Source: an uncultured virus (IMG/VR IMGVR_UViG_3300037455_000857) (Duplodnaviria; Heunggongvirae; Uroviricota; Caudoviricetes). Taken from it: DNA of 64,000 nucleotides. The notes under the pieces were generated by a model, which did no database searches, was not told where the DNA came from, and saw nothing but the letters and a program-made list of their open reading frames with translations. The stretch is taken from IMG/VR virus record IMGVR_UViG_3300037455_000857; one strand, 5' to 3'. How positions within the stretch are numbered: the stretch's first letter is position 1; each line of letters starts with the position of its first letter. A program made the position numbers and the translations under genes. Of the stretch, positions 27,265-63,822 are shown piece after piece.

Positions 27265-27272
27265 CTAATTAT

Positions 27273-27347: not shown

Positions 27348-27363
27348 CACAAACACGAATTCT

Positions 27364-28285: not shown

Positions 28286-28286
28286 T

Positions 28287-28745: not shown

Positions 28746-28764
28746 CCTTTTCATTAACAGACAG

Positions 28765-28801
28765 AAGCGTTGCATTGCAACGCTTTTTTTGTTTATAAAT
28801 A
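28765..28801 (+). promoter_or_regulatory. Terminator followed by late promoter TATAAATA
   Basis: aagcgttgc-att-gcaacgctt plus a T run, then TATAAATA at 28794. Confidence 0.65.
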
Positions 28802-28817
28802 TAAGAAAATACTTTCT

Positions 28818-32049: not shown

Positions 32050-32709
32050 TTATTTTAGTATATTGCTCACCGATTCGATGGCAAAGTCGTTCACAGCCCG
32101 CAAAATGCCGTCCAAAAACATACGTGCGAATGTTTCAAAATTCGCGTTTCTTCTTGGGTCGTATTTTGCATAAAACCATACATCGAATGGTGTCTCTTGC
32201 ATTTCACTTTTATAATCAAAGCCTTTTATGTACTTGTCTTTGTTGTCGTCAACATACAGTTTCATATTTGAGAAGAAAACCTCGGTTATTTTAAGGCTTG
32301 TTCCGTCAATTTCGATGCCTATCTTTTTGAATTCGGCAATTTTCTTTTTGCTCAACGGTATTGGATTCATAACAGCGTCCGTAAACGGTTCACTGATGTC
32401 TTTTCCTATCATAAGCGGTTTGAAATAATCATCCAATCCTATTACAATATATGTGTTGAAATCATCTTTGCCGCAAAACCCAGTAAATTGGCTGAAACCG
32501 TTTTTTACTATGTCGCATAATATGTTCTCGTAATCGTCAAAAACATCACCCATAATATTTGTCAAAGCACTTTCGTATTCGTTCCTTTTTCCGATGAGTT
32601 CATTTTTCACGTCTTTCCAAGTCTGTAGTTTTCTCAACCGTTCCTTTGACACGGGGGATATGTTCAGTTTCTCACTGACGAATTTGCTGTAGTCCAATAT
32701 CTTTTCCAT
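32050..32709 (-). CDS. Tagged protein, domain family D
   Basis: MEKILDYSKFVSE-KLNISPVSKERL. Confidence 0.8.
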   Translation of the reverse strand: MEKILDYSKFVSEKLNISPVSKERLRKLQTWKDVKNELIGKRNEYESALTNIMGDVFDDYENILCDIVKNGFSQFTGFCGKDDFNTYIVIGLDDYFKPLMIGKDISEPFTDAVMNPIPLSKKKIAEFKKIGIEIDGTSLKITEVFFSNMKLYVDDNKDKYIKGFDYKSEMQETPFDVWFYAKYDPRRNANFETFARMFLDGILRAVNDFAIESVSNILK

Positions 32710-32712: not shown

Positions 32713-33906
32713 CTATGCGAATATTTTGTTGAATGTTCCAGTAACGTAGTTGTTCACGGCAAGTATCACGTTTTCAGTGAATGCGTTTAAGTGTTTGTCG
32801 AATGTTCTGTCTTTTGGATTGAACTTCGCCGCTATATAGGCGTTCATACCGTTGTCGTCAACGCATTCCACGATATATTCGCCATTGTCCATATAATCGG
32901 AAAGTTTGGTTTTCAGATATTCGACCATTTTTTCGATATATAGGTCGCTGAACTTCAAGTAGTAAGTGTATATTCTCTCCGTTTCAAAATTAGCCAAATG
33001 TCTTTCGCCCGTCTGTTTTCTGTAATAATCGATGCCCGTGTCCGCCATCCGTTTCCTCTGTTCTGCTGTGGGTGATATTGGATTCAGCGTTCTGTCCAAG
33101 AACGGCTTTTTAATGTCCTGCCCAACGATACATTCGCGTTCCTGCAATGAGACTGTGAAATACATATTGTATTTGCTGCCGCAATTTATGCCGTTGCCGA
33201 ATGAAAGTGTGCTGAACATAGCATTGTCAAGCGAGTATACTCTGCTATTGAACACTTGGAGCATATCGTTGTTTATCTTCGCCTCCAATTCCACTTGGTT
33301 TTTCTGCATATATTTCATAAGGTCTATGTCAGCCTGCATTTTCTTGATGCGTTCTTTGGAGAGCGGGGTTATGTTCAGTTTCTCTGTGATGGATTCCGAT
33401 ATGTTGAGCATTTTCTTGACTTTTGCTTCATTGAACCACACGTTTTTACACTTCAGTTGCTCTGTATAAACTTTATCTCCGCTGCATATATTTTTGAGAT
33501 ATGACATAAACAAATTGTCCATAGGATTCGGTGCGCTTTTGCTTCTTGATATGCAGATAAGTGTGAATTTGCTGTTTTCAAGTTGGCTGTCCAAATCGGA
33601 TGTGTATATGTATTCAAACTCGTCCCAATCGTGGTGACTCCTAATATAGCGAATCATCACGCCGCCTTTGTTCTTTTTCAACCCGTAGAAAATCTTTTTG
33701 TAATTTGCGGCAAATTCTTCCAAATGTTTATTTCCTACATACACAAACGTCTTCCAAAATTTAGTGTCTTTCTCGGCAAATATGCAGACATCGCAATCAT
33801 TCAAAAGATATTTCGGCGTGTGTACGCCGTTTAGCCTTTCTTTGGTGATAGGCTGTATGTTGAGTTTTTCGTTTATGAACGCATCAAAATCCAAGATTTT
33901 CCCCAT
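32713..33906 (-). CDS. Two-domain tagged polyprotein
   Basis: N-terminal INE-KLNIQPITKERL and internal ITE-KLNITPLSKERI. Confidence 0.8.
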   Translation of the reverse strand: MGKILDFDAFINEKLNIQPITKERLNGVHTPKYLLNDCDVCIFAEKDTKFWKTFVYVGNKHLEEFAANYKKIFYGLKKNKGGVMIRYIRSHHDWDEFEYIYTSDLDSQLENSKFTLICISRSKSAPNPMDNLFMSYLKNICSGDKVYTEQLKCKNVWFNEAKVKKMLNISESITEKLNITPLSKERIKKMQADIDLMKYMQKNQVELEAKINNDMLQVFNSRVYSLDNAMFSTLSFGNGINCGSKYNMYFTVSLQERECIVGQDIKKPFLDRTLNPISPTAEQRKRMADTGIDYYRKQTGERHLANFETERIYTYYLKFSDLYIEKMVEYLKTKLSDYMDNGEYIVECVDDNGMNAYIAAKFNPKDRTFDKHLNAFTENVILAVNNYVTGTFNKIFA

Positions 33907-48191: not shown

Positions 48192-48194
48192 TTA

Positions 48195-48641: not shown

Positions 48642-48644
48642 ATA

Positions 48645-49121: not shown

Positions 49122-49127
49122 AGCCGT

Positions 49128-49709: not shown

Positions 49710-49725
49710 TGTTAATATATATTGC

Positions 49726-50232
49726 TTATATATTGCGTATATTGTCAAAATCTTTGCTCTTGTAAATGAGCGTTGTGTTCTCTCTGTGGTTCGCCATAGT
49801 TTGCAGCATAAAGTCCGTGAAAGGCTGCGGCTTTAACATATTGTATCTGTAAATGGCGATTATTTGCGTGAGTTGCTTTCTTCCCATAATACTCATTTTG
49901 TTTTGCATCCGATTGTCTTCAAACGATTTCACCGACAAATAGCAGTAAGTTCTTGTGTCCTCGTTGAATCTGACGAACAGACCCTCCGAAAAATCCCCGT
50001 TGGTTTCCTTCGAATCGTAAAAAAGCAGGATGTCATTGTATTTATATTTGATTATGTCGCTATACGAAAGGTATATGTATGCGCTTATCTCTTCTATAGC
50101 CCATTCCTTTTCTATGATGACAATATCGCCGCTTTTTATTTTTCTTTTCCAACCATAGGATTCGGTTATGATGCCTTTTGCTATGTCGGCGAGTTTATCT
50201 TTTGAGATTGGTTGTATATTAAGTTTTCCCAT
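49726..50232 (-). CDS. Tagged protein, TGDIV domain, leaderless
   Basis: MG-KLNIQPISKDKL; IKSGDIV. Confidence 0.8.
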   Translation of the reverse strand: MGKLNIQPISKDKLADIAKGIITESYGWKRKIKSGDIVIIEKEWAIEEISAYIYLSYSDIIKYKYNDILLFYDSKETNGDFSEGLFVRFNEDTRTYCYLSVKSFEDNRMQNKMSIMGRKQLTQIIAIYRYNMLKPQPFTDFMLQTMANHRENTTLIYKSKDFDNIRNI

Positions 50233-50238
50233 AATATG

Positions 50239-50781
50239 CTATATGTCTTTGCAGAATCTGATTGTGAGTTTTGTTTCTGGGCTTGAAAACTGTATTGACA
50301 GAGGTATATCAGAACCTCTCAATATTCGGCAGGCTGTTCTGTATCCGCTTGCTGTCGGAGGGTTTGAGCAGAAAAACCAAGCCACTTGGAATCTTTGATG
50401 CACGCGGTCTGTCATACATCCGAGCATTTTTGCGCCGAAACCGTATTTGTCGCTGCCGCCGTCACCCTTTGCTATTATGTCGCTTCCGAAATCCAAAAGT
50501 TTCAGAAAATCGGTGGATGTGGGAAGCCTCCAACCTTTAGGGACGATTTTCATCGCGCCCTCATAGGTGTAGTAGTATGTGCCGTAGTCCCTCTTATAGT
50601 CAACGTTGTATTCGAGCGGGTTTCCGTCAGTACCGATTTCGATGTTCGCGTTCTCGGATGTCCATAAAAGACCGCCCAATTTCACAACGCCGAATCCATA
50701 CACGCCCCTGCCGAGACGTTCCTTTGAAATCGGCTGTATGTTGAGTTTCTCGTTGAATCGTTGTGTGTCGAGTATATCCAT
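50239..50781 (-). CDS. Tagged protein, FISUMP-like domain
   Basis: FNE-KLNIQPISKERL; WTSEN, PKGWRLPT, IRFCKD. Confidence 0.85.
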   Translation of the reverse strand: MDILDTQRFNEKLNIQPISKERLGRGVYGFGVVKLGGLLWTSENANIEIGTDGNPLEYNVDYKRDYGTYYYTYEGAMKIVPKGWRLPTSTDFLKLLDFGSDIIAKGDGGSDKYGFGAKMLGCMTDRVHQRFQVAWFFCSNPPTASGYRTACRILRGSDIPLSIQFSSPETKLTIRFCKDI

Positions 50782-50786
50782 ATCGT

Positions 50787-51260
50787 TTATATTTTACTGT
50801 GCCAAATCAACTTATAACTCTTCAGTGTCGGGTGCTTGAAATATTTGGCATCGAATGTCGTTTTCCCTATTCCGCGATACACGTGGTCTATGATATATGA
50901 AACAGACCTCAACTCGTCACGGACGACATCGTAGTCAAACAGTCTGTCAAACACGAATCTGTCTTTTTCCCAATGGACGAACACGCCTTCCCCCGCGTCA
51001 AATTCCAACGGTCTGAATCCTATTATGTCTTGGTATGTTCTGTTTTTCAAATCCTCGTATGAAACAAAAATGCCTATGTCGGACACGGGTATGTCGTATC
51101 TTCGGATACGCATAACGATGTCCCCCGTTTTGAAATTATCGCGCATTTCCTTTGCCGAACCGTATTCTTGCAATTCGGAAGCCGTGCTTTGCAGTCTCTC
51201 TTTTGAAAGAGGCTGTATGGATAGTTTCTCGTTAAGTTCACGTGTTTTCAGTATCTTCAT
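50787..51260 (-). CDS. Tagged protein, TGDIV domain
   Basis: LNE-KLSIQPLSKERL; FKTGDIV. Confidence 0.82.
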   Translation of the reverse strand: MKILKTRELNEKLSIQPLSKERLQSTASELQEYGSAKEMRDNFKTGDIVMRIRRYDIPVSDIGIFVSYEDLKNRTYQDIIGFRPLEFDAGEGVFVHWEKDRFVFDRLFDYDVVRDELRSVSYIIDHVYRGIGKTTFDAKYFKHPTLKSYKLIWHSKI

Positions 51261-51268
51261 AATTCCGA

Positions 51269-52345
51269 TTATATGTTTCTTACAAACCTCAACGACATAC
51301 CATATCGGATTGAGAGTTTTTCAACCCAAACGCCACCGTGTTCTGGTTTCAATTCTTTTCCAACGATTTTCACGCTTTTGACACTATCCATTTTCTGTGG
51401 GTCGTTTGCGTGTGGGCTATATGCTTCAAAAATGAGATTTGTGTACATATCCTTTCCTATGATTTTGTTGGGGGTATGTATGCCGAGGAGTTTTAGTCCA
51501 AACCCGTATTTGTCATTGCCGCCGTAATCCTTGGATATGAGGTCGATTATCTCGCCGTTGCATATCCCTAATGATTTGTTGATGTCATCCTTTGTCGGAA
51601 TCCGCCATCCGTTTGGCACTACGCTCACGGCGGCGTTGAACGTGTAATATATCTCGCCGTCTTCCTCGAAGTAGTCTGTTCCTTTGACAAGCGGGCTACC
51701 GCTGTGTGTGACAAGTGTTGTCGCGTTCTCTGCAGTCCAAATAAGATTGCCGATTTGCACGGTTTTTGTTTTCATTTTGTCCAAACGCTCGCTCGAAATG
51801 GGTTGGATTTTCAACTTCTCGTTGATGTCTTTCGGCTTGTAACTGAACACGGTACGGCATTTTCTGACGTAATTTTGGATTGCGACCAATGAAGCGCAGA
51901 ATAAATCTTCGCCCAATGGTTCTTTAAGCAAATCGTTTCTGAATATCTTATGGACAAATGTCACGCTGCGCAGAAGTTCTCTCTGCGGATATTTGTCGCC
52001 GTATGCCGAAATACAGTCGTATGTGAATTTCGGCGTGTTTCCGTGATAGTTCTTTCTAACAATTATGCCTTCCGATATATCATAATCATAAAGCGTGCTT
52101 ATGTCGAATATCTTGTTGTAATTGTATTTTTCAAGAGATTCTTGTGAAACATAAAAGTAAAAAGACGCTTCGTCAATGTCTCCGCCGAATTGTGAGTTGC
52201 ACATAACGACTATATCGCCAGTTTTAAGCGTGTGTTTCCAATCCGATGGCAATGTTGGACTTTGCAGTCTTTGGGCGATACGGTCTTTCGGTATCGGCTG
52301 TATGTTGAGTTTCTCGTTATATGCTTTCGTGTCAAGTATTTCCAT
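51269..52345 (-). CDS. Tagged polyprotein: TGDIV + FISUMP-like
   Basis: YNE-KLNIQPIPKDRI; internal INE-KLKIQPISSERL. Confidence 0.85.
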   Translation of the reverse strand: MEILDTKAYNEKLNIQPIPKDRIAQRLQSPTLPSDWKHTLKTGDIVVMCNSQFGGDIDEASFYFYVSQESLEKYNYNKIFDISTLYDYDISEGIIVRKNYHGNTPKFTYDCISAYGDKYPQRELLRSVTFVHKIFRNDLLKEPLGEDLFCASLVAIQNYVRKCRTVFSYKPKDINEKLKIQPISSERLDKMKTKTVQIGNLIWTAENATTLVTHSGSPLVKGTDYFEEDGEIYYTFNAAVSVVPNGWRIPTKDDINKSLGICNGEIIDLISKDYGGNDKYGFGLKLLGIHTPNKIIGKDMYTNLIFEAYSPHANDPQKMDSVKSVKIVGKELKPEHGGVWVEKLSIRYGMSLRFVRNI

Positions 52346-52350
52346 AGCGT

Positions 52351-53406
52351 TTAATCTTTTACAAGTCTTACGGGCAATGCGTGTACGCTTGTTGTTATCC
52401 AACTTCTGATGACGGAGTTGTCCGATTTGTTTCCGACCAAAGAGTAAGCCTTTCTGTATTCACCGTCACCCCACGGTTCGCAATCCATCCAAAACGTGAA
52501 AATCGAGTCGGATTCTCTGTATTTGAACCCGCAGTAATAATAACCGTCATAGGTTTCGTTCAGTCCGTATGTGTCATATCCGCCGCATTCCTTTGACGTG
52601 TATGCCGATATGTCGTCACCGCAAATGGCGATAAGTTTGATGACGTCCTCTTTTGTCGGCAAATGCCATCCATTCGGTATTATCGCCTTTGCCGTGTCGA
52701 ACTTATAATATATCTCAATGAAAGGATGCCCGTTTTTCGTTGTCTGTATCTCATAGTAGTCTTCCCCCGCTTTGAAATCGGAATTCGGTTCGATGACAAG
52801 GTTTTCGGCAGTCCACCACATATTTCCTATCTTGACGATGTTGCCGAGAAGCGGGTTGAACTGCGTGTTTATTTTGCTGTGCTTGTACTTTCCGAGCCTT
52901 TCTTTCGACATAGGCTGTATGTTGAGTTTTTCGTTGAGTCCTTCCTCCTCGTACAGACACACAGCCTTTGACCTATCTATCCGAGTGTTTGTCAAAAACT
53001 CCTTTGACGGGGTGCTTGTTAGATTGTATCTGTATATTCCCTTTATTTTCAAATTCGGGTTGGCAACGCCTTCCATACAGTTGTCCTTGAAATAACCCAA
53101 TCCTATATACGTGAAATAGTTGACATTTACGGGCGGGATAAGAAAGAATCCGCTTTTGCTTGCGAGGCTGTGTTCAATGTCGTACAGATTGAGGATATTC
53201 TCGTAATACCTTATATAGGTTTCATATCTCATAAAATAGCAAAGTGTGCTTTCGTCTTTGCTGAATTGGACAAGTACAGCGTCACCCGTTTGGAGTTTTT
53301 CCTTCCAACCGTTGCCGTTGTGTATCAGACGCATATTGGCGAGCCTTGCCTTTGACATAGGCTTTATGTTTAGTTTTTCCTCTATGTATTCCTCGTATGT
53401 TTTCAT
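52351..53406 (-). CDS. Tagged polyprotein: TGDIV + FISUMP-like
   Basis: MKTYEEYIEE-KLNIKPMSKARL; internal LNE-KLNIQPMSKERL. Confidence 0.85.
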   Translation of the reverse strand: MKTYEEYIEEKLNIKPMSKARLANMRLIHNGNGWKEKLQTGDAVLVQFSKDESTLCYFMRYETYIRYYENILNLYDIEHSLASKSGFFLIPPVNVNYFTYIGLGYFKDNCMEGVANPNLKIKGIYRYNLTSTPSKEFLTNTRIDRSKAVCLYEEEGLNEKLNIQPMSKERLGKYKHSKINTQFNPLLGNIVKIGNMWWTAENLVIEPNSDFKAGEDYYEIQTTKNGHPFIEIYYKFDTAKAIIPNGWHLPTKEDVIKLIAICGDDISAYTSKECGGYDTYGLNETYDGYYYCGFKYRESDSIFTFWMDCEPWGDGEYRKAYSLVGNKSDNSVIRSWITTSVHALPVRLVKD

Positions 53407-53408
53407 AA

Positions 53409-53972
53409 TCAGTTTTTTATAAATCTTACATTCATAAACAGACTTTTGTGTGCTGGACGCACCATTATTGATTCTGTTTTTGAAATCAAAATCGCTTGTG
53501 AATAGTCTTTCCCGTCAGATATGTGTCCGCAATCCCCGTTACACCATAATTGGTAGTCCTGCCCTTTGTATCGGACTACGCCGCTCTTTGTCACAAGCCC
53601 GTTGTATTTTCCGTTGAAATGCAACGAGTTGTTTCCGCCGCATTCCTTTGACATAAGGTTTTCCGACTTATAATCCGCAGCAGCACGCAATTCTTCGCCT
53701 TCTCGATATGTCGGAAGATGCCATCCATTCGGAACTACTTTCATCGCGCCGTTGTATGAATAATACACCTCGCCGTCAATAATTACATAATCAATGCCTT
53801 TGAGAAGGTTGCTTCCGTCAGCGCGTCTTGTCAAGCGGCAGTTCTGTGCAGACCAAATGCACGAGCCAATTTTCACAAACGGCATTCGTGCGGAATTCCC
53901 GTTCTTGAGGTCGTCTTGCTTAATGGGGCTTATGTTCAGTTTCTCCGATATGTATTCCTCGTATGTTTTCAT
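53409..53972 (-). CDS. Tagged protein, FISUMP-like domain
   Basis: MKTYEEYISE-KLNISPIKQDDL; PNGWHLPT. Confidence 0.85.
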   Translation of the reverse strand: MKTYEEYISEKLNISPIKQDDLKNGNSARMPFVKIGSCIWSAQNCRLTRRADGSNLLKGIDYVIIDGEVYYSYNGAMKVVPNGWHLPTYREGEELRAAADYKSENLMSKECGGNNSLHFNGKYNGLVTKSGVVRYKGQDYQLWCNGDCGHISDGKDYSQAILISKTESIMVRPAHKSLFMNVRFIKN

Positions 53973-53978
53973 AATCCG

Positions 53979-54494
53979 TTAATCTTTCACAAACCTCAAG
54001 TTGAGGAAATATTTTGATTTGTCTATTGATTCGAGATACAGTGTGTCAACCCGTTTCTCGCCGTTGAATATATACGGCACACCGTCAATGTCACACCAAA
54101 ACGAGAATCTTGTTCCGTTCACAATGTTCTCACCAACGTACACCTCGCCGCACAGTTTGAAATTCAGACCGTATTTGTCATAGCCGCCGTTGTCTTTGGA
54201 AATGAGGTCTGTCGGATTGTCGGTCAGTTGTCTGACCACGTTCACATCGTGTCCGTGCGGTATGTGCCAACCTTTCGGCGTTATGCGTTTTGCAGCGTCA
54301 AACGAGTAGAATACCTCGTTGTCATAAACGAAATAGTCCTCGCCCTTGACGAGACCGTCTGTTTTGTTGTAGTTGCGCGAAGACCAAGTCACCCCGTTCA
54401 CTGTTACGGGAAGCATAAGTGAATTGAGACGTTCTTTCGTGACGGGCTGTATGTTCAGTTTCTCGTTGAATTGCCGTGTATTCAGTATCTTCAT
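53979..54494 (-). CDS. Tagged protein, FISUMP-like domain
   Basis: FNE-KLNIQPVTKERL; PKGWHIP, LRFVKD. Confidence 0.85.
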   Translation of the reverse strand: MKILNTRQFNEKLNIQPVTKERLNSLMLPVTVNGVTWSSRNYNKTDGLVKGEDYFVYDNEVFYSFDAAKRITPKGWHIPHGHDVNVVRQLTDNPTDLISKDNGGYDKYGLNFKLCGEVYVGENIVNGTRFSFWCDIDGVPYIFNGEKRVDTLYLESIDKSKYFLNLRFVKD

Positions 54495-54516
54495 ATATGC
54501 GCTATATTATTCGATT

Positions 54517-55233
54517 TTATTGTAATTTTTTGTCATCAGTAACAACAATGCCGCCGACCCAACTTGGTTTGGTTTTTGGCGATTTCAATCGCGGGTTGTT
54601 TGAACAATAAAAGTTACCGCCGACTTTTTTCATTGCACCATTAATTGATATTATCTGATTGTATTCACAATCCAAATCTCTGCCGATTTCTATAGGTGCG
54701 TGTTTGAGTGATTCTATTTTGTTTTTACGGCAGGAAAAATTCTTTCCGACAAACCTTGGTGCGCCTTCAAGCGATGTTAAATTGTTGGCTTCGCAATAAA
54801 AACTGCCGTTCACTTTCTGCGGTGCGCCTTCAAGCGATGTCAATTGGTCATCATCACAAAAAAAGTCACCACCAATTTCCTGCGGTGCGCCTTTAAGTGA
54901 TTCCAATTTGTTGCCATCGCAGTAAAAATTTTCACCAATTTTCTTTGGCATACCGTAAAGCGATTTGAGTTTGCAATAATTGCAAATGACCGAGCCTTTA
55001 ACTATGCCGAATTTGATTTTCAATTTACCATTTTTATCAACTACACGAAAATCAATGGTGATGTCACCATCGCAGTCATATAGTCTCGACAATTTGTTCC
55101 ACACAAGTTCGTATTGGTTGATGAATGATTTTGCTTTATCATCAACCATTGGTTCATCAAACCTTTTGTCGTCACCGACAATCGGCTTGATATTCAATTT
55201 CTCGTTGAATTGCTGTGTGTTCAGTACCTTCAT
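54517..55233 (-). CDS. Tagged protein, LRR-like 22 aa repeats
   Basis: FNE-KLNIKP; repeats of LTSLEGAPQKVNGSFYC type. Confidence 0.85.
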   Translation of the reverse strand: MKVLNTQQFNEKLNIKPIVGDDKRFDEPMVDDKAKSFINQYELVWNKLSRLYDCDGDITIDFRVVDKNGKLKIKFGIVKGSVICNYCKLKSLYGMPKKIGENFYCDGNKLESLKGAPQEIGGDFFCDDDQLTSLEGAPQKVNGSFYCEANNLTSLEGAPRFVGKNFSCRKNKIESLKHAPIEIGRDLDCEYNQIISINGAMKKVGGNFYCSNNPRLKSPKTKPSWVGGIVVTDDKKLQ

Positions 55234-55252
55234 ATATGCGCTATATATTACA

Positions 55253-55705
55253 TTATTTATCCCTTTGCCAAATAAGTTCCATATCATCTCTGTTTATCGG
55301 CGGGTCTATGAAATAAACTGAAGGATATGGTTGTTCCGATTTGCCTCTGTATATAGACATAACTTTTTTGATTGTGAACGACTTTGTGTCAACAAGGTTG
55401 ATGTCGAAACGTGAAAGAGGCATCGTGATAAACCTGCTCTGTTTCTTGCTGTATGCCACGAATCCTCCATCCGAATATTCTTCACCGAACATACCTATCT
55501 TTGACGGATAATGTTCATTGCAATCCTCTTTTGATATGTAAACGTATGGGATGTTTTTTGTTGACGGGCTGAAATCGATGTCAATCACAACGAAGTCGCC
55601 GCTTTGCAGAAGTCGCTTCGGTGTCTTTGTGTTTTTCAGTCGTTCCTTGCTTATCGGCTGTATGTTGAGTCTTTCGTTAAATTGCTTTAAGTCAAGTATT
55701 TCCAT
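55253..55705 (-). CDS. Tagged protein, TGDIV domain
   Basis: FNE-RLNIQPISKERL; LQSGDFV. Confidence 0.82.
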   Translation of the reverse strand: MEILDLKQFNERLNIQPISKERLKNTKTPKRLLQSGDFVVIDIDFSPSTKNIPYVYISKEDCNEHYPSKIGMFGEEYSDGGFVAYSKKQSRFITMPLSRFDINLVDTKSFTIKKVMSIYRGKSEQPYPSVYFIDPPINRDDMELIWQRDK

Positions 55706-55706
55706 A

Positions 55707-56726
55707 TTAAAAGTCATATATTGATTTTTCCATTTGTGTAAAGTCCTGCTTGTATTTTTTCAATGCATCCAACTCTTCTTTTGTGTATGGTCGAATCCAT
55801 ATCTTTTCACCCTCATTTGACGGATTGTGGAAATATTTTACGTCCAACGGCTGTTTTATGTTTTTGTTCCTTATGATAAGGTCAAGAACAATGCCTTTCA
55901 ATGTTTTCCTTGTTTCCTCAAGTCTTTCATTGAAATTGGCAAGCCTTTCGTATTTGAACTCCACAGACTGTAAACCATTGTACTTGCCAATAATATTTTT
56001 GGTTTTCGAATACACGAGTATGCCCGTGTCGCTTATCCAATCTGGTTCATAAAGATTCAGTTCAAGTATTTTTTCATAATCATATTTGAAATAATCGTCC
56101 TTTGATATAAACACATAGAATTGGTGTGTCTTTGTCTTTATATTATGTGCGAACACAACGTCTCCCGTTTCCAATCGCTTTTTCGGCGGGACGGATTCTT
56201 TTGCGAGACGTTCCTTGCTCATAGGCTGTATTGACAATTTTTCAGACACACTTTCGACAACTTTCAATGATTTGTTTTTCCATATCAGCCTGCCGTTGTC
56301 AATAGGCGGGTACAGTAAGTAATCCTCCGACAGAGGGAGTTTGATGCCGTTCACTCTGTATATCGCCGTTATGTAATGGTTGTCAAAAATACCGTTTGGT
56401 TCAAGATTGTCGTTGAATCCAGACAAGTGCATATAGGAATACGAGCCTTTCCATTTTACTTCGTAATGCAGCAATATTCCTTCCGCCGACTTTTCTTTTT
56501 GATAGTCGCCCTCAAGATACACATAATCCCTTATATTGTCCTTTTCTATGTAAACATAGGGTACTTTGTTTCTTTCGGTCAACTTACTTCCGTATTTCAT
56601 CACCATTACTATATCGCCCGTTTTCAGCATCTGTTTCGGTTTTAGCAATGTGTTTTTTAGCCTATCGTTTGATATTGGCTGTATGTTGAGTTTCTCGCTC
56701 AACTGTTCGGTATTCATTATCTCCAA
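55707..56726 (-). CDS. Tagged polyprotein: 2 x TGDIV
   Basis: Probable TTG start giving MEIMNTEQLSE-KLNIQP (alternative ATG at 56738); internal VSE-KLSIQPMSKERL. Confidence 0.82.
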   Translation of the reverse strand: MEIMNTEQLSEKLNIQPISNDRLKNTLLKPKQMLKTGDIVMVMKYGSKLTERNKVPYVYIEKDNIRDYVYLEGDYQKEKSAEGILLHYEVKWKGSYSYMHLSGFNDNLEPNGIFDNHYITAIYRVNGIKLPLSEDYLLYPPIDNGRLIWKNKSLKVVESVSEKLSIQPMSKERLAKESVPPKKRLETGDVVFAHNIKTKTHQFYVFISKDDYFKYDYEKILELNLYEPDWISDTGILVYSKTKNIIGKYNGLQSVEFKYERLANFNERLEETRKTLKGIVLDLIIRNKNIKQPLDVKYFHNPSNEGEKIWIRPYTKEELDALKKYKQDFTQMEKSIYDF

Positions 56727-58549
56727 GCCTCGTCCCATATAAGATTTGTTTTTTTCGCAATGTAGTTTATGTTTTCAAAAAAATTTATGTCAATATGCGG
56801 TTCAGCCGCAATTCTGTAAACGCGCAGGACTTTTGTGTTCAAGTTCATTTGCAGACTGCTGTTGTATTCTGAAAGGAAATCCCTTGTGAAATAATTTGCC
56901 TTTTCCAAAAATACAAACGCACCTTCTTCTGATTCTTTGTAGTGTGACATAGGCAGGAAGAAATTGAACAGTTTGTCGTACTTCCCGCTTGCAACGTCCT
57001 CCGCCGATATGAATACGGTGGCGATGTGACCTTTTTGGTTTCCTATGATTGCTATGTCGCCCGTCTTGAAATTAGCCCTCATATCCCACGGTGTTTTGTA
57101 CTTCACCATAGGAAATGTGTTTTTCAGACGTTCTTTGCTTATTGGTTTTATATTCAGTTTCTCGTTCATCTTCATAGGTCTTTTGGCGAAACCGTGTTCA
57201 GCAGTCCAATAGCATTCGGCGAATGACACGGGAGGTCTTTGTATGTATTCTATCGAAATCCTGCTGTTTTGGCTGAAGTCTTTTATCCGAAGCAATGCAG
57301 ACACATACAAAGGGTTTGACGCTTTTGAAACAAGTTTGTCGTCAATGTCCTCGATGTATCGCCAAACATAGGTGTTGTCCCCAAACGGACGGACAAAGCA
57401 CCCGTTGAGGTTGTATTCCTCCATTGATTTAAGCATTGAGCCAAACGGGTATTCTAAATGCTTTTGCTTCTTTAGGTACTCACGTGTCACATACACTCTG
57501 TAATGATAGTGTCCGCTTTCGTTGCATTGCGCTATGTCGCCGCATTTTATGTGTGTTCTTATATCGTTCACATCGGAAGCGGTTTTTGCGAGTCGTTTAT
57601 TTGACATAGGCTGTATGTTCAGTTTTTCCAAAACGGATACATTCAGACCTTCTTCGGGTGTCCAATAAATCTTTCCGTAATCAATTGGCGGTGCTTTGAT
57701 GTATTCATTCATCGCGAAATCATTTGGGTCAAACTCATTCAGCCTCCACAACGCCTCTATCTGTGCGCCTTTTCCGTTATTGGCGACAAGAGATTCGTTA
57801 TATGTTTTTATGACGCATATAGCGAAAACATCCCCGCTGACCGAATACACGAACCCGCCGCTTGAATTTTCCGTTTTCAGTTTTTGGTAAATTAGGTCAA
57901 ACGGATATTGATTGCTCTGTTTTTTGGCAAAGTCGTATGTTATAAACACGGCATATTTCGTATCGCCAAAGGTTTCGCATCGCGCTATGTCGCCGCATTT
58001 CAAGTGTGTTCTGATGTCGTTCATATCGGAAACGGTTTTTGTAAGACGTTCCTTTGACATAGGTTGTATGTTAAGTTTCTCGGACACATCGCCAATGCGC
58101 TTGTATATGATTTCCGATTTGTTTTTGAGCGACTTTATGTCCAAGAAAAATTCATCGTCAAACGGCTGCTCTATGTCAAAGCACCTCGCGATTTCAACTA
58201 TCTTGTCGCCCCACTTGTTTTCCATTTTGTCGTTCATATACCTGCTCAAGCAAGTGTAGGTGTAGCGGTCGTCCGTCCTATGGACAAGCACACCCTCATT
58301 CGCGTCTTTGTTGAACCCAACGGATGTTATTTTCAGCAGGTCGTTGTAATAGTATTTGTTCAAGTCCTCATAAGACAGAAATATGTATTCGTTCAGCATT
58401 CCGAGCATTATGGATTCTCTGTGATGTTCCATAACTATCACGTCACCGCTTTTCAAACGGTCTTTCCACCCAAGCCTTTCGATTATGCGGGCGTGTCGTA
58501 TTTTCATACGGTTTGGTGCTATGGGCTGTATGTTAAGTTTCTCGTTCAT
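56717..58549 (-). CDS. Tagged polyprotein: 4 x TGDIV
   Basis: Tags after MNE, VSE, VLE and MNE, one per domain. Confidence 0.88.
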   Translation of the reverse strand: MNEKLNIQPIAPNRMKIRHARIIERLGWKDRLKSGDVIVMEHHRESIMLGMLNEYIFLSYEDLNKYYYNDLLKITSVGFNKDANEGVLVHRTDDRYTYTCLSRYMNDKMENKWGDKIVEIARCFDIEQPFDDEFFLDIKSLKNKSEIIYKRIGDVSEKLNIQPMSKERLTKTVSDMNDIRTHLKCGDIARCETFGDTKYAVFITYDFAKKQSNQYPFDLIYQKLKTENSSGGFVYSVSGDVFAICVIKTYNESLVANNGKGAQIEALWRLNEFDPNDFAMNEYIKAPPIDYGKIYWTPEEGLNVSVLEKLNIQPMSNKRLAKTASDVNDIRTHIKCGDIAQCNESGHYHYRVYVTREYLKKQKHLEYPFGSMLKSMEEYNLNGCFVRPFGDNTYVWRYIEDIDDKLVSKASNPLYVSALLRIKDFSQNSRISIEYIQRPPVSFAECYWTAEHGFAKRPMKMNEKLNIKPISKERLKNTFPMVKYKTPWDMRANFKTGDIAIIGNQKGHIATVFISAEDVASGKYDKLFNFFLPMSHYKESEEGAFVFLEKANYFTRDFLSEYNSSLQMNLNTKVLRVYRIAAEPHIDINFFENINYIAKKTNLIWDEAWR

Positions 58550-58560
58550 TGTATTGTTGT

Positions 58561-59703
58561 TTATTTGTCTTTGCAGAATCTCAATGACAGTCTGTATTTG
58601 TGTTTGTCGGACTTGTTTATGGAATCAGTCCAAGCATTGCCTCTTGGGTTGTTCATAGTACCCATAACCTTTAACATATAGGCTAAAGGTTTTCTTATTG
58701 TGCCGAATTGTGAAATATCGTTATAGTAATGTTCAACCCAAAACTCTGTGTATTTGTCGTTACCAAGTCTGTGTGTGTCGTAAAGCACGCCAATAAGTTT
58801 GGCGCAGAATCCCAATTCGTCACTTCCGCCGTATTCTTTGGATACGAGCGAAAGATAGTTTCTATCAGAAACGCAGTCGAGAAGGTCATCGCAGTCTTTG
58901 ACTGTCGGTATTCTCCATCCTTTTGGAATAACGAGTTTTGCCGCGTTCATTGAATAGAAAATCTCCCCGTTTGCTTCAATGTAGTCGTTTCCTTCAACAA
59001 GAGGCTCTCCGTCATTTGTGAACAGTATTTTGGCATTTTCGGCACTCCAAAGTTTGTTGCCGATTTGAACACTTTTTATGTGTGTTGTGTTTTTGAGACG
59101 CTCGCTTGATATGGGCTGTATGTTGAGTTTCTCGTTTACGTTCTTATAGAACATATTGTAGATTTCCCGCAAGGCGTTTGTGTTTATGTCCGTGTCATAG
59201 AACGGCTGTTTCGGGACAATGCCTGGTCTGTATATCACGGATATTGCTTCAAACGAATACGGCTTCGGGGGTATTGCAATTGGTCTTTCGTCACCAAAAT
59301 AGTCTATGCACAAGAAATGGTGTTTGTGCGAGTCGTTTCCGCAGTATCTGTTTTTCTCCAAGTATTCGTGTATGTCCGAGCCGTATCCTATGAGAATGCC
59401 GTTTTTGATGTATTCCTTTCTGTTAGGATATAACTTGAAAAAGTCGTACAGTTTGTCGTATTCGTATTTCATATAGTCTTTGTATGAAACATATCTGTAC
59501 TTTTTTTCTATAAACGGTATGTTCGTGTTCTCGTGCATTCTCGTGACGACAACGACATCGCCGCTTTCAAGACGGCGTTTCCAACCATACCTTTCAAACG
59601 GGTCGGTACGCAGCGCGTCAGAAGCGTTTTTCAGCGCGTCTTTCGACAAAGGCTTTATATTCAGTTTCTCGTCTATATATTCTGTTGTTCCGAGTATTTT
59701 CAT
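58561..59703 (-). CDS. Tagged polyprotein: TGDIV + FISUMP-like
   Basis: IDE-KLNIKPLSK; internal VNE-KLNIQPISSERL. Confidence 0.85.
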   Translation of the reverse strand: MKILGTTEYIDEKLNIKPLSKDALKNASDALRTDPFERYGWKRRLESGDVVVVTRMHENTNIPFIEKKYRYVSYKDYMKYEYDKLYDFFKLYPNRKEYIKNGILIGYGSDIHEYLEKNRYCGNDSHKHHFLCIDYFGDERPIAIPPKPYSFEAISVIYRPGIVPKQPFYDTDINTNALREIYNMFYKNVNEKLNIQPISSERLKNTTHIKSVQIGNKLWSAENAKILFTNDGEPLVEGNDYIEANGEIFYSMNAAKLVIPKGWRIPTVKDCDDLLDCVSDRNYLSLVSKEYGGSDELGFCAKLIGVLYDTHRLGNDKYTEFWVEHYYNDISQFGTIRKPLAYMLKVMGTMNNPRGNAWTDSINKSDKHKYRLSLRFCKDK

Positions 59704-59713
59704 AAATTTCAGT

Positions 59714-60784
59714 TTATCTTTCCCAAATTTTCACAGCCTTGTATATGGGCTGTTCTTTGAAATATTCCACGTCAAGCGGGAGTTTCAGATTGACGAATCG
59801 CCACACCACCCATATACAATAGTCTTTTCCGTTTTGCGTGAGGTTTGAATCCAACTGCGCGAGGTCTGTCCGTGTGAACGTTTCCTTGCCCGCATCATAT
59901 GGGGCGTGCTTGTAAAAGATGATGAACACGCCATCCTTGTAGAATCGCGTATCGCGGAGTGCGATTGCAAATCCGAAATATTTGTCATAGGTTTCGTTCT
60001 CAATGTCTTCCTTTGATATGTACACGCCTATGTGCTTGGTATTGGGTTTTCCAATCAAGGCAATGTCGCCCGTCTTGAAGTTGGCACGCATATCCATCGC
60101 GCTATTATAATGTACTATATGGTTGCGCAGCCGTTCTCTTGATATAGGCTGTATGTTGAGTTTTTCTTTAAGCGGTTTTATGTTTTTGAGATTCCATTTC
60201 GAAGAATCCCCGCTCAAACTTGTAACGGTTTGGAACATAGTGTCTATGTTCTGGATATTGTCCGTTTTTATCTGTGTGTCGTTGCGCTTTCTTTTCCATA
60301 TAAGTTCATACCCATTGTCTTCAAACGATGCCGTCATACATACTTTTTTAACCAAATCCGTTGGATTTATCGACTTCAGATTTTTGTGTCTGAAAATGGC
60401 TATAACCGTTCTGTGTGTTATGGTCGGGCTTTGGCTTGTTTCTTGCAAGTTGTTGTCGAATTCATCCAACAGAGTGTATGTCAGACGGTTTACGTCTCCG
60501 CAATAGTTTATGATACAACCGCTGTGGTTGGTATCGTTGTTCACTATATCTTGGTTGAGTCCGCATTTGGAATAGTCATTGTATGCCACAAACATTCCCA
60601 TTGAAAGAGTGATGCCGCCGAATGCCTGCTCGTCTTTTATAGTAAGCAAGTCCCCCGTTTGCAGGTTGGAACGCATATAGTGTGGAGTCATTCTATCCCC
60701 CACACGCTCGTTGCGCAGTCTTTCGTCCGAAATGGGCTTTATATTCAGTTTCTCGTTAAGTTGTCTTGTGTTCAGTACTTTCAT
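59714..60784 (-). CDS. Tagged polyprotein: 2 x TGDIV
   Basis: LNE-KLNIKPISDERL; internal LKE-KLNIQPISRERL. Confidence 0.85.
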   Translation of the reverse strand: MKVLNTRQLNEKLNIKPISDERLRNERVGDRMTPHYMRSNLQTGDLLTIKDEQAFGGITLSMGMFVAYNDYSKCGLNQDIVNNDTNHSGCIINYCGDVNRLTYTLLDEFDNNLQETSQSPTITHRTVIAIFRHKNLKSINPTDLVKKVCMTASFEDNGYELIWKRKRNDTQIKTDNIQNIDTMFQTVTSLSGDSSKWNLKNIKPLKEKLNIQPISRERLRNHIVHYNSAMDMRANFKTGDIALIGKPNTKHIGVYISKEDIENETYDKYFGFAIALRDTRFYKDGVFIIFYKHAPYDAGKETFTRTDLAQLDSNLTQNGKDYCIWVVWRFVNLKLPLDVEYFKEQPIYKAVKIWER

Positions 60785-62190
60785 AGCCTTGTGTTTTTTA
60801 CTATTATTCCGTCAACCCTGCATTTGTCAAATATGCTGAAGTCGGAGATTCTCACGCAACCGTTAAGATTGATGTTTCCGCCAACGTATTCGGGTACTGC
60901 GCTGACATCGACCAAATTGTAGCAGAACGACAGCACGAAGTCGCCGCTTATATTCAATGGGACATCGTTTATCCTTTCAAGATTCGTGCAATATGCGAAA
61001 TCGAAATTGCCCTTTACTGTTTTTGGAGAGCCGTCAAATGAAACCAAATCCGTGCATTTGTTGAACAATGCGTCACCTCCTATTTCCTGCGGTGCGCCGA
61101 TTAGGTTTTTCAGTTTGACGTTTCTGTTGCACCAAAAACCCCCGCCGACTTTCTGCGGTGCGCCTTCAAGGGTTTGCAGGTTTTCGCAGTTCGAGCAGTC
61201 CAAATTACCGATTACCTGCTTCGGTGCGCCTTTCATTGTGAGCAGTCCCTTGCAGGACGAACAGTTGAAGTCAGAGCCTATTTCCTGCGGTGCGCCTTCG
61301 AGCGTTTCGATGTTGTTGCACATAGCGCAACTGAACCACCCGCCGACTTTCTGCGGTGAGCCTTTCAGTGATGTCAGTCCTTGGCATCCAGCGCATTGGA
61401 AATTGCCTTTCACTTCTGTCGGCGCGTTTTCAAGCGAAACCAAGTCGGAGCAACCGCCGCTGTTGAAATTACCGCCCAACTTCCCAACGGGAACGGGTAT
61501 TTTGCCGTCAACCAAGTCCTTGTCGTTCAGAATCAGATTTTCGATGCCGTCAAATCTCTGCGTGCTTACGTTGTATGTGAGGTGGTGATTCTCAACAAAC
61601 GCTTTCTGCTCCAAACTCAAACGCGGAACAAGTCTGTCTTTGGGAAACGGGTGTATGTCGAGTTTCTCGTTCAAATTTGCGCCTCTCGCCCAAAGGAGTG
61701 AGAATATGTTTACTTTGTCGTTGAATTTGTTTCCGATATACTCAAAGTCAATCGGTGTTTTCACAATGGACGGAACTCGATATACAGCATATATTCGATG
61801 TATGTTGTCTTTGTTTTTTATCTCGAAGTTTCGGTCAAACGATTTAAGATACTCGTAGTTGTTGTATTTGTCCCCGAATACGGAAACAAACACGCCTTCA
61901 CCAACGTAGTCTTTGTTTAGAAAACACATACCAGTTTCGTTCATATAGTATTTTTCGTCTTTCATCCAATCCTCGTATGATATGTAAACTTGAAGTTTCG
62001 CGTTATACTCATCGTATTTGCTCCCGATTAAATGTCCTTCGGATATGATTGCGATGTCGCCCGTTTTGAAATTGGCACGCATTACTTCCTTTGTCTTATA
62101 AAGAGAGTAAAATCCGCCTTTAAACCTATTCATCGGAATTGGCTGTATGTTGAGTTTCTCGTTGAATTGCTTTGTGTTCAGTATTTTCAT
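60781..62190 (-). CDS. Tagged polyprotein: TGDIV + LRR-like repeats
   Basis: FNE-KLNIQPIP; internal LNE-KLDIHPFPKDRL; LEGAPQxxGGxFxC repeats. Confidence 0.85.
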   Translation of the reverse strand: MKILNTKQFNEKLNIQPIPMNRFKGGFYSLYKTKEVMRANFKTGDIAIISEGHLIGSKYDEYNAKLQVYISYEDWMKDEKYYMNETGMCFLNKDYVGEGVFVSVFGDKYNNYEYLKSFDRNFEIKNKDNIHRIYAVYRVPSIVKTPIDFEYIGNKFNDKVNIFSLLWARGANLNEKLDIHPFPKDRLVPRLSLEQKAFVENHHLTYNVSTQRFDGIENLILNDKDLVDGKIPVPVGKLGGNFNSGGCSDLVSLENAPTEVKGNFQCAGCQGLTSLKGSPQKVGGWFSCAMCNNIETLEGAPQEIGSDFNCSSCKGLLTMKGAPKQVIGNLDCSNCENLQTLEGAPQKVGGGFWCNRNVKLKNLIGAPQEIGGDALFNKCTDLVSFDGSPKTVKGNFDFAYCTNLERINDVPLNISGDFVLSFCYNLVDVSAVPEYVGGNINLNGCVRISDFSIFDKCRVDGIIVKNTRL

Positions 62191-62197
62191 ACATTGT

Positions 62198-62692
62198 TTA
62201 TCTTTCCCAAATGATTTTTGCGTTTTTTGTGTTCGGATATTTGTAGTATTCTTCGTCAAACTTGCCGTGATTTATAAAAGGATTCCTATAAACGCAAATG
62301 ATTTTGCTTTTTCCAATATGATAATCACTAATAAGTTCATCATTGTAACTGCTGCAATATTCATATACGAAACCGCTTGCATATGTTTTACTGCTAACGA
62401 ACACACCGTCTCTGATATTATCGGAATAGTAATTCAAATTATTTAATCCAAGCAGTTTTCCGAATTGTTTGTCAATCAAATCTTCAAATGAAACATATAC
62501 AGATTTTATGTCCGAACCGCTTGACACACCATTATAATTCACCATTTCTGATATGACAATATCGCCAGTTTCGAAATTGTTGCGCATATCCTTTGGCGTG
62601 GCGTATTTTGCCGAAATGCGTTGCAATACATTCTTGTCGATAGGATGTATGTCGAGTTTCTCGTTGAATTGCCTTGTGTTCAGTATTTTCAT
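62198..62692 (-). CDS. Tagged protein, TGDIV domain
   Basis: FNE-KLDIHPIDKNVL; FETGDIV. Confidence 0.82.
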   Translation of the reverse strand: MKILNTRQFNEKLDIHPIDKNVLQRISAKYATPKDMRNNFETGDIVISEMVNYNGVSSGSDIKSVYVSFEDLIDKQFGKLLGLNNLNYYSDNIRDGVFVSSKTYASGFVYEYCSSYNDELISDYHIGKSKIICVYRNPFINHGKFDEEYYKYPNTKNAKIIWER

Positions 62693-63156
62693 AAACGTTG
62701 TCTTTCTTTGTCATATATGAGTTTGCATCGTTCTTTCGGTGGATTCTTGAAATACATAGGTTTTAACGGTTGTGATATTTCTGACGGTCGATATACCTTT
62801 TCAACACAAACCGTTTTTAATCGAACCAAATCCTTGTCAAAATAATCGACAATTCCAAATCCAAGCGTTCCGAGGTATTTTGTGATAAAAACACCGTCTT
62901 CCAATTTCCCGTATTTCATCATATCATTAATGCTCATATTAAGAAGTTCGTTATACTTGTATTCAGTCAAATCGTTTTTCGATACGAAAACACCGTCAAC
63001 ACCGCCGTTGGTTGAAAGGGTCACAATGTCACCAGTTTTGAAATCGGCACGCATATCTTCGGCTGATTTCGGTATGAATATGTTGTCGAGTCGTTCTTTT
63101 GACATCGGCTGTATGTCGAGTTTCTCGTTGAATTGACTTGTGTTCAGTATCTTCAT
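62689..63156 (-). CDS. Tagged protein, TGDIV domain
   Basis: FNE-KLDIQPMSKERL; FKTGDIV. Confidence 0.82.
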   Translation of the reverse strand: MKILNTSQFNEKLDIQPMSKERLDNIFIPKSAEDMRADFKTGDIVTLSTNGGVDGVFVSKNDLTEYKYNELLNMSINDMMKYGKLEDGVFITKYLGTLGFGIVDYFDKDLVRLKTVCVEKVYRPSEISQPLKPMYFKNPPKERCKLIYDKERQRL

Positions 63157-63162
63157 ACGGCG

Positions 63163-63822
63163 TTAAATTTTGTCCCAAACGAAAATGAAAAGTTGCAGGA
63201 AGCACACGACTTCCATAAAGAATATCCACGCCTTGTTGTCAACGTCAACGGAATAGTCGGGGTTGTATGCGCCAGGGGTGTTGATGCCTATCAGTATGAA
63301 CATCACATAGGACAGAATCATACTCGGTATCGCGACAAAACTTGTAAGGCAGAGATAAGTCGTGATGAGTGCTATTGTAACAAGGGAGCAGATATAGTGT
63401 ATGGGTCTTGCCCAACCGTATTTGAAAAACACGCTTGGCTTGAATTTCTCCAAGAGTTCCTTTATGAATTCCTTGAATGACTTTTTGACGATGGGCTGCT
63501 TGGTGTCGAAGCGAACTTCGGGTACATAGGTGTCTCCGCCGTCACGTTTTGGTCCAGATTTGTAGCGGCAACTAACGCCTATCATAACCATACACACGAC
63601 AACCACAATCGGAATCCAACAAAGGTTTTTCGGGGATATTGTGAACCACCAAAAACCGAATGGAACTGCGGTTAGCGAACACCACGCGCTGAACATCCAA
63701 TCCCATTTGTTAGGGAGAAGGTAGTATGTTTCGGAAATTGATACGGGAACTCCGTATTTGAACAATATAAAGATTATGTATGCAAAGCACAACACAATCG
63801 AAATAATGGGTAAACTAATCAT
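63163..63822 (-). CDS. Multi-pass membrane protein
   Basis: About six hydrophobic segments; directly upstream of and co-oriented with the tagged array. Confidence 0.8.
   Translation of the reverse strand: MISLPIISIVLCFAYIIFILFKYGVPVSISETYYLLPNKWDWMFSAWCSLTAVPFGFWWFTISPKNLCWIPIVVVVCMVMIGVSCRYKSGPKRDGGDTYVPEVRFDTKQPIVKKSFKEFIKELLEKFKPSVFFKYGWARPIHYICSLVTIALITTYLCLTSFVAIPSMILSYVMFILIGINTPGAYNPDYSVDVDNKAWIFFMEVVCFLQLFIFVWDKI

Follow-up and report, generated by a model that had tools for sequence, protein, structure and literature searches.

Why does one short peptide recur at the start of, and between the domains of, so many otherwise dissimilar proteins of a phage? This question is raised by the window analysed here, a 64,000-nucleotide piece of the uncultured Caudoviricetes record IMGVR_UViG_3300037455_000857 (IMG/VR), in which 26 open reading frames (ORFs) carry a peptide that we refer to as the tag. 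Eight of these ORFs, seven of them between positions 51,269 and 62,190, also contain internal copies. A reading made from the sequence alone had proposed that one leader loads a chain of domains and that the head protease cuts this chain into separate small proteins with the same new N-terminus. We suggest a revised form of this proposal, in which the multi-module ORFs encode capsid cargo polyproteins that are cut after Glu by the prohead protease, and we assign it a probability of about 0.55.

The tag has the consensus [I/V/L/F]-x-E followed by the block KLNIQP[I/V/M][S/T]K[E/D]RL. The six-frame translation of the window contains 32 copies of its core, E[KR]LxIxP, compared to a mean of 0.17 and a maximum of 2 in 100 mononucleotide shuffles. 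If the residue before KL is left free, 39 rows are obtained, and removal of three spurious ones (20362, 20470 and 26468) leaves 36 real copies in the 26 ORFs; ten of these copies are internal, and in the eight ORFs that contain them each is placed precisely where two domains meet. Without exception, the motif is read in frame and opens a domain. Most leaders read MKILNTxQFNE, three are of the type MKTYEEYIxE (MKTYEEYIEE, MKTYEEYISE and MKKYEEFIKE), and two stand-alone genes are leaderless and start with MG-KLNIQP and MGS-KLNIQP. Across the motif rows, third codon positions vary for Leu (G17 C14 A4 T4), Pro (T13 G10 C9 A7) and, likewise, the next Ile/Val codon, while synonymous usage is biased for Lys (AAA in 35/39) and Ile (ATA in 34/39). 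Because the wobble positions of the invariant Leu and Pro and of the following Ile/Val vary freely, selection acts on the peptide and not on the DNA. On direct reading, the tag is hydrophilic and has no hydrophobic stretch resembling a signal peptide. The modules have a median isoelectric point of 8.6 versus 6.5 for other ORFs, which is a weak hint as some of the ORFs used for comparison are doubtful. The string KLNIQP is absent from all papers of the searched literature library.

To what is the tag attached? Every tagged ORF was cut at the tag, the tag was removed, and the bodies were clustered by blastp. The bodies form unrelated clusters, i.e. family A with 18 modules (19 with a hidden Markov model, HMM), Fib_succ_major with seven, family C with three, a leucine-rich-repeat-like group and family E with two each, and four singletons. 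Because the same tag precedes at least five families without blastp relationship as well as the singletons, it does not belong to any one fold but is a portable signal. The sequence-only reading had placed internal copies in seven ORFs here and in ORF 32713-33906; a check of frames and motif positions found them there with the residues it quoted. Its claim that these copies lie exactly between domains is likewise borne out, in that the flanking segments match stand-alone tagged genes by blastp clustering and by the family HMM. In other words, each internal tag lies between two bodies whose kinds also exist as stand-alone tagged genes. With B denoting Fib_succ_major, the architectures of the multi-module ORFs are A-B (three times), A-A (twice), A-A-A-A, A-leucine-rich-repeat and A-like-C (coordinates in Table 1). 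Upstream modules of family A end in a conserved Trp/Tyr motif, and the tag starts 8-15 residues later, except in ORF 59714, where the linker has ~50 residues.

Structure predictions fit this arrangement. The AlphaFold model of ORF 51269-52345 has two confident domains, and its internal tag region (residues 164-183) has a predicted local distance difference test score (pLDDT) below 50; the N-terminal 30 residues have a pLDDT of 52-65. The model of the single family A module 62689-63156 has a mean pLDDT of 91.9, with 68-84 for the tag versus about 96. Relative to the Pfam gathering cut-off of 33.9 bits, Fib_succ_major (PF09603) matches lie above it for module 2 of 52351 (43.8), 53409 (45.5), module 2 of 58561 (35.1), 50239 (37.0) and 49128 (57.3), and below it for module 2 of 51269 (31.9) and 53979 (23.3). 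The model of a Fib_succ_major module (domain B) has a C-type-lectin-like fold with matches to InvE (Z 8.6, root-mean-square deviation (rmsd) 2.6 Å, 106 aligned residues), Lcl (Z 8.3, 2.3 Å, 95 aligned), TvpA (Z 7.6) and Mtd (Z 7.2), although the tool itself cautions that best Z values of 7-8 are frequently seen with models that have no clear Foldseek match. For family A, no clear structural relative emerged; the best match is weak and is to a cysteine peptidase of the papain/NlpC-like type (3kw0_A, Z 5.9, rmsd 3.5 Å, 100 aligned). Pfam matches of this family to NlpC/P60 are also weak and below the cut-off, and neither Cys nor His is among the conserved columns of the family A alignment. At E≤0.001, neither a Foldseek search of the PDB with the two-module model nor a BFVD search with the family A model returned a match. 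A tblastn search of GenBank phages with a family A module and a PHROGs search with the tagged proteins gave no match either.

The tag is conserved in relatives. A DNA pattern derived from the motif led to four related IMG/VR records. One of them is G001, a 413-kb genome rated 100% complete, the first 61 kb of which are syntenic with the window. Core genes of the two are 80-96% identical (terminase 90%, PhoH 92%, the membrane protein 63163-63822 92%). G001 has ~73 tags at many loci (77 regular-expression rows minus four spurious ones) and, by a stricter count, 13 internal copies with Glu; G002 (192 kb) has ~80 tags and G003 (106 kb) ~18. The tagged cluster is a hypervariable island, with 26-53% protein identity between window 48195-63156 and G001 47773-61706, while the flanks are 80-96% identical. 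We liken this to the T-even internal proteins, which are described as a diverse set with only the capsid-targeting sequence (CTS) in common (PMC3012670). The tag is rare. When a profile of 76 N-terminal tags was searched against 1.84 billion protein representatives, 177 were found at E≤0.001 and 29 at E≤1e-10. Among 151 public representatives, 31 have at least two tags, 115 have one and five have none by regular expression; the spacing between tags in public proteins is mostly 138-169 residues. A related-locus search of viral contigs with the 610-residue protein, encoded by 56717-58549, returned no relative.

Comparison with orthologues suggests that the internal copies are functional. ORFs 51269, 55707 and 56717 are fused in both the window and G001. 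In fused orthologue pairs, 31/48, 10/16 and, for ORF 55707, 12/16 of the tag columns (16 per tag, P3 to P13', numbered from the proposed cut) are identical, while the bodies are 28%, 40% and 35% identical, respectively; the fused G001 orthologue of ORF 51269-52345 as such is 40% identical. Conservation is far higher in the internal tags than in the bodies of the domains. Both an orthologue of the 610-residue ORF with 90% identity, P0001, and the G001 counterpart, with 31% identity, have four modules and retain all four tags, including every Glu-Lys-Leu..Ile..Pro residue. For the second modules of 52351 (49%), 59714 (53%), 58561 (39%) and 60781 (42%), by contrast, the best G001 match is a stand-alone tagged gene. 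Between relatives, fused and split forms of the same modules thus interchange. The sequence-only reading had named lack of conservation of the internal Glu in orthologues as a refutation; the Glu is kept in the orthologues and in 43/43 public internal copies, so that the proposal survives this check. Overall, the tag is modular, under selection at the protein level, located at domain boundaries and conserved in relatives.

Does the conserved Glu mark a cleavage site? In T4, the internal proteins share a 10-residue CTS, MKTYQEFIAE, which is described as being removed in a single cut by the head protease (PMC8442874). The protease, gp21, is reported to cleave after L/I-X-E; within the CTS, targeting involves residues 4 and 7 and processing residues 8 and 10, and Asp at position 10 blocks processing (PMC9026906). 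The leaders MKTYEEYIEE, MKTYEEYISE and MKKYEEFIKE match this sequence at 7/10 residues, including positions 4, 7 (Tyr/Phe), 8 and 10. These leaders are found in 3/26 tagged ORFs, while most leaders (MKILNTxQFNE) have the general pattern only. In the 151 public representatives, P1, the residue before the proposed cut, is Glu and never Asp in 183/183 tags, a set that was collected with a Glu-invariant profile and slightly favours Glu-bearing matches. P3 is I/V/F/L/M/Y in 178/183. By comparison, the acidic position ten residues after P1 is variable (E 66, D 43, T 29, N 15). In the public internal copies, which have otherwise lost the leader, P3 is V/I/L/M in 40/43, and in internal copies of five phage sequences it is aliphatic or Met in 38/40. 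A second Glu-type site, SKE-RL, was considered as a general site and rejected, as the position is E in 66/183 tags only.

A candidate protease is encoded by the relative. In G001, P0153 (290919-292859, minus strand) matches Peptidase_S77, i.e. the gp21 type, above the cut-off (E 7e-14) and phrog_207 (6.8e-34). Towards the C-terminus, it contains Y(L/I)AE in each of 12 tandem 14-residue repeats (residues 279-446), a region that looks like a scaffold made of repeated L/I-x-E cleavage units. The G001 capsid gene of the Gp23 family (E 6e-29) has tagged genes on both sides, and because of the synteny with G001 the capsid gene of the window's phage should lie just past base 64000. Within the window, ORF 40219-40617 (plus strand, 132 residues) matches the N-terminal part of phrog_207 only (5.5e-11, profile positions 36-132 of 519). 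It has no Pfam match and, on reading the sequence, no obvious Ser nucleophile motif; its G001 counterpart is 28% identical. Diverged protease paralogues are described in SPN3US-like phages (PMC5694885). The possibility that the tag mimics the scaffold repeat (YLAE-KLNQN versus YINE-KLNIQP) was set aside for want of statistical support, as the tag profile scores a non-significant -2.8 bits on P0153. A complex prediction for P0153 residues 215-470 and the N-terminal 40 residues of a tagged protein yielded a score of 0.00, i.e. "no answer", which speaks neither for nor against binding.

In the model that we propose, the tag would have three parts: a short removable leader, either MKILNTxQFNE or the form MKTYEEYIxE that is near the T4 CTS; a hydrophobic-x-Glu site such as prohead proteases of the gp21 family cut; and the invariant block, which would become the new N-terminus. 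Tagged proteins would be loaded into the prohead core and then cut after Glu. Because site and block recur at every domain boundary, the prohead protease would free each 16-32 kDa module, all with a KLNIQP... N-terminus. In this way, the window would encode a large, fast-evolving set of small binding-type domains with one portable tag before each. Capsid loading, Glu-Lys cleavage and the release of separate modules are the steps that we infer. More broadly, and more tentatively, we propose for this clade of huge phages that a two-part signal may load ~70 diversifying binder proteins per genome, in part as polyproteins cut at every domain boundary, with the block as a new signal for cargo anchoring or ejection.

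The earlier proposal is thus upheld with respect to a portable signal with a T4-CTS-like leader, a hydrophobic-x-Glu site, a protease in a relative and a conserved Glu. The part that does not stand as proposed is that one leader loads the whole chain. This part is weakened by the 610-residue ORF, which starts with MNE-KLNIQP, by the two MG-/MGS-KLNIQP genes and by a small-protein family with the block in mid-chain and no Glu. As each module carries its own block, a single leader per chain is not required; and as every module keeps the block, the block is as likely as the leader to be the element for loading or recognition. Candidates for its partner are a protease exosite, the scaffold, the portal and DNA. 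The DNA upstream of the 610-residue ORF continues in frame as ATT GAG ATT CTG ... and translates as IEILQRQINNNTMNE, which looks like a leader that lost its ATG (the start is now ATT). The block is found without Glu in ~4/36 copies in the window and in 4/~73 in G001, where three genes have it near the N-terminus after T, S or K. The mid-chain copies are in a family of ~150 residues (43852-44319 and 44322-44765 in the window), with counterparts at G001 43315 (T-KLRIQP) and G002 98651 (G-KLEIKP). The two window proteins had no match in PHROGs, and they could be a partner, an adaptor or a competitor for whatever reads the block. As a separate observation, a G001 protein (191636-192643, minus strand, locus L020) starts with MKILSLDQFIAE followed directly by GAGAG, i.e. 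it has a T4-CTS-like leader without the KLNIQP block; it carries a full internal tag, QVNE-KLNIQP, at residue 117, and a similar gene is present in G002 at 115848.

Several points count against cleavage of capsid cargo. The residues of the tag that are conserved best follow the proposed cut, which is unlike anything in T4, and a pure cleavage site does not need them. Because Glu-less copies exist, the block has a role that is independent of cleavage, and the 610-residue polyprotein has no MKIL leader. The gp21-type protease is seen in G001, while the window, which is one part of its genome, has only the 132-residue paralogue of the N-terminal part; the P0153 scaffold repeats do not score significantly with the tag profile (-2.8 bits); and the set of 183 tags is slightly biased towards Glu. 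At E≤1e-5, Pfam matched 33 of 148 public tagged representatives (18 Fib_succ_major, 14 DUF285 and one LRR_4) and none of the other 115, so that most tagged domains are without known function. Finally, ~70 different cargo proteins per genome would exceed, to our knowledge, anything documented for phage heads.

Some of these points are those on which the strongest alternative is built, namely that the multi-module ORFs encode uncleaved fusions of neighbouring paralogues and that the tag is a docking peptide for a shared partner such as a scaffold, the portal, a chaperone or another phage protein. Internal copies would then be extra docking sites or simply inherited, and the Glu would belong to the docking motif and not be scissile. 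Paralogues packed this tightly fuse easily, and no part of the tag is better conserved than the block, which is present without Glu in leaderless genes and, within the chain, in the small-protein family of the window, G001 and G002. Docking does not readily account for a P1 Glu that is never Asp in 183 tags when E and D are freely exchanged at the other acidic position, nor for internal copies that keep the hydrophobic P3 despite loss of the remaining leader. Also against it are the three leaders that nearly equal the cleaved T4 CTS and the gp21-type protease of the close relative. We consider it unlikely.

Less probable still is that the tag is a signal unrelated to the capsid, e.g. for export, sorting to an intracellular phage structure or timed degradation, with processing, if any, by another protease. 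The folds of most tagged domains (Fib_succ_major, DUF285, leucine-rich repeats) are those of binders, which bacteria usually have outside the cell, and the ~73 tagged genes of G001 are spread over many loci and not confined to the neighbourhood of the head genes. This fits poorly with a hydrophilic tag that lacks a signal-peptide-like stretch and that resembles the T4 CTS and the L/I-X-E motif. Moreover, tagged genes flank the G001 capsid gene and adjoin the terminase gene of the window.

Cleavage would not be needed at all if translation started anew shortly before each internal tag and so gave the downstream modules separately, which we regard as very improbable. As the sequence-only reading had noted, the internal copies lack the MKIL leader, yet 3/10 have an in-frame ATG within 10 codons upstream (MLNISESITE at 33384, MKMNE at 57163 and MFYKNVNE at 59133), so that internal initiation may apply to these three. 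The other seven have no such ATG, and with a chance expectation of roughly 1 in 5 (a rough estimate) 3/10 is not clearly above chance. Moreover, the upstream module would keep the next tag at its C-terminus, and the conservation of hydrophobic-x-Glu would be unexplained. That the motif is a recombination or regulatory element in DNA or RNA that is merely translated is close to refuted and scarcely credible, as the bias for AAA and ATA is outweighed by the free third positions of Leu, Pro and Ile/Val codons under invariant amino acids, and by a motif that is always in frame and at a domain start.

How would capsid cargo cleaved in this way compare with known systems? Among the closest is the T4 CTS on IPI, IPII, IPIII and Alt, which is removed by gp21. 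As in the tag, a short N-terminal leader that ends in hydrophobic-x-Glu is attached to unrelated, fast-evolving small proteins, and the relative encodes both a protease of the gp21 family and a capsid protein of the gp23 family. The systems differ in that an invariant 12-residue block follows the presumed cut here and none does in T4; in that site and block recur inside ORFs at domain boundaries and leaderless forms exist; and in scale, with ~26 tagged ORFs in 64 kb and ~73 tags in 413 kb versus a handful in T4. In the maturation of head and ejection proteins of giant phages (phiKZ gp175, SPN3US gp245), gp21-related, Glu-specific prohead proteases are described that make several cuts per protein (PMC10052503, PMC5694885, PMC9026906), and families of paralogous head proteins have up to 20 members, as in SPN3US (PMC5694885). 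In the accounts cited, however, the extra cuts chop long propeptides that are discarded, at the motif A/S/G-x-E, while the pieces here are folded domains also found as stand-alone genes, and P3 is I/V/L/F. Pfam scans of 18 + 17 + 58 + 148 proteins gave no match to the inner-head families of phiKZ and SPN3US (e.g. pfam12699).

For delivered proteins with several domains, the nearest concept is that of the polyvalent proteins of phages and conjugative elements (Iyer et al. 2017), which are described as multi-domain, effector-like, fast-evolving and shuffled, and are predicted to enter the host with the DNA (PMC5512222). They have conflict-related enzymatic or toxin domains, 2-15 per polypeptide, often with their own MPTase-type peptidase (PMC5512222). 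A reiterated tag at their domain borders is not known. Here, by contrast, small binder-type or unknown folds are separated by a repeated predicted site for a protease acting in trans. Of the tagged proteins scanned with Pfam, some matched Fib_succ_major, DUF285 or LRR_4 and the others nothing; domains of the polyvalent type were not among the matches, nor was a peptidase above threshold.

In RNA viruses, polyproteins are encoded by one ORF in which a short site recurs at domain boundaries and is cut by a viral protease. The tagged ORFs resemble this arrangement in the recurring boundary site and in products that also exist as independent units. They differ in belonging to a double-stranded DNA tailed phage and in having modules that are paralogous or accessory cargo and not a core replication or structural set. 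If the cleavage model is correct, it would extend the T4 capsid-targeting principle and give a double-stranded DNA phage with a polyprotein strategy for accessory cargo. The sequence alone would then mark the probable virion-delivered set of uncultured megaphages, ~70 proteins per genome, mostly of unknown function and with binder-type folds, which would be prime candidates for host-takeover or anti-defence factors. As a new short signal, the block that follows the cut would have a partner that could be found (protease exosite, scaffold or portal), and it could be used as a tag for loading foreign proteins into phage heads.

Table 1. Tagged genes of the window, their internal tags, two small proteins with the block in mid-chain and the terminase gene. 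The eight multi-module ORFs are given as open frames, all on the minus strand, and each Glu codon by its highest coordinate.
Feature	Coordinates	Strand	Glu codon	Remarks
Three stand-alone tagged genes	28818-29240, 29993-30499, 30508-31149	+		
Stand-alone tagged gene, family C	32050..32709	-		
Two-module ORF, distant family A + family C	32713..33906	-		adjoins large terminase gene
Internal tag ITE-KLNITPLSKERI (ITE-KLNITP)	33346-33390	-	33384	in ORF 32713-33906
Large terminase gene, T4-type	33930-35837	-		head/packaging neighbourhood; 90% identical to G001
Two small paralogous proteins	43852-44319, 44322-44765	+		KLNIKPIT..RL in mid-chain after Gly; no Glu, no leader
Six stand-alone tagged genes	48195-48641, 48645-49121, 49128-49709, 49726-50232, 50239-50781, 50787-51260	-		include leaderless MGS-KLNIQP and MG-KLNIQP forms and T4-CTS-like leader MKKYEEFIKE
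Two-module ORF, family A + Fib_succ_major (C-type-lectin-like)	51269..52345	-		N-terminal MEILDTKAYNE-KLNIQP
Internal tag INE-KLKIQPISSERL (INE-KLKIQP)	51782-51826	-	51820	in ORF 51269-52345
Two-module ORF, family A + Fib_succ_major	52351..53406	-		T4-CTS-like leader MKTYEEYIEE
Internal tag LNE-KLNIQPMSKERL (LNE-KLNIQP)	52894-52938	-	52932	in ORF 52351-53406
Four stand-alone tagged genes	53409-53972, 53979-54494, 54517-55233, 55253-55717	-		first with leader MKTYEEYISE; third leucine-rich-repeat-like
Two-module ORF, family A + family A	55707..56738	-		fused G001 orthologue, 36% identity
Internal tag VSE-KLSIQPMSKERL (VSE-KLSIQP)	56205-56249	-	56243	in ORF 55707-56738
Four-module ORF, 610 residues, family A x4	56717..58549	-		starts MNE-KLNIQP, no MKIL leader
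Internal tags VSE, VLE, MNE-KLNI	58043-58087, 57590-57634, 57125-57169	-	58081, 57628, 57163	in the 610-residue ORF
Two-module ORF, family A + Fib_succ_major	58561..59703	-		
Internal tag VNE-KLNIQPISSERL (VNE-KLNIQP)	59095-59139	-	59133	in ORF 58561-59703
Two-module ORF, family A + family A	59714..60784	-		linker ~50 residues
Internal tag LKE-KLNIQPISRERL (LKE-KLNIQP)	60128-60172	-	60166	in ORF 59714-60784
Two-module ORF, family A + leucine-rich-repeat-like domain	60781..62190	-		
Internal tag LNE-KLDIHPFPKDRL (LNE-KLDIHP)	61630-61674	-	61668	in ORF 60781-62190
Two stand-alone family A tagged genes	62198-62692, 62689-63156	-		

The window (G+C 44%) is part of a huge, uncultured T4-like tailed phage. 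The nearest GenBank relatives of its terminase, at 29-36% identity, are from uncultured phages of 460-640 kb, Sphingomonas phage PAU, Tenacibaculum phage PTm1 and Prevotella Lak phages, and a megablast search of GenBank phages with 50000-63200 gave no match. Genes for PhoH, an RNA ligase and a DNA methyltransferase are present. A cluster of 35 tRNA genes, including three for tRNA-Met and five for tRNA-Leu, occupies 14964-27348 on the plus strand; such a cluster is typical for very large phages. An open frame of at least 2487 codons (1-7464, plus strand) runs off the start of the window. It has collagen-like GxQ triplet repeats and, in its last third, matches to tail-fibre PHROGs; the G001 counterpart is 42% identical.

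Between tagged genes near the terminase gene lies a transposase-like ORF of 283 residues (31171-32022, minus strand; phrog_506 2.6e-25, phrog_12300 1.3e-24). As tblastn found no counterpart of it in G001, it may be a recent insertion. Finally, antisense ORFs such as 28209-28925 (minus strand) recurrently hold the strings IGCMLSFS and YVEFLV, which are the tag read on the reverse strand; these ORFs are artefacts and not genes, and a gene caller could automatically pick such frames across the tagged cluster.

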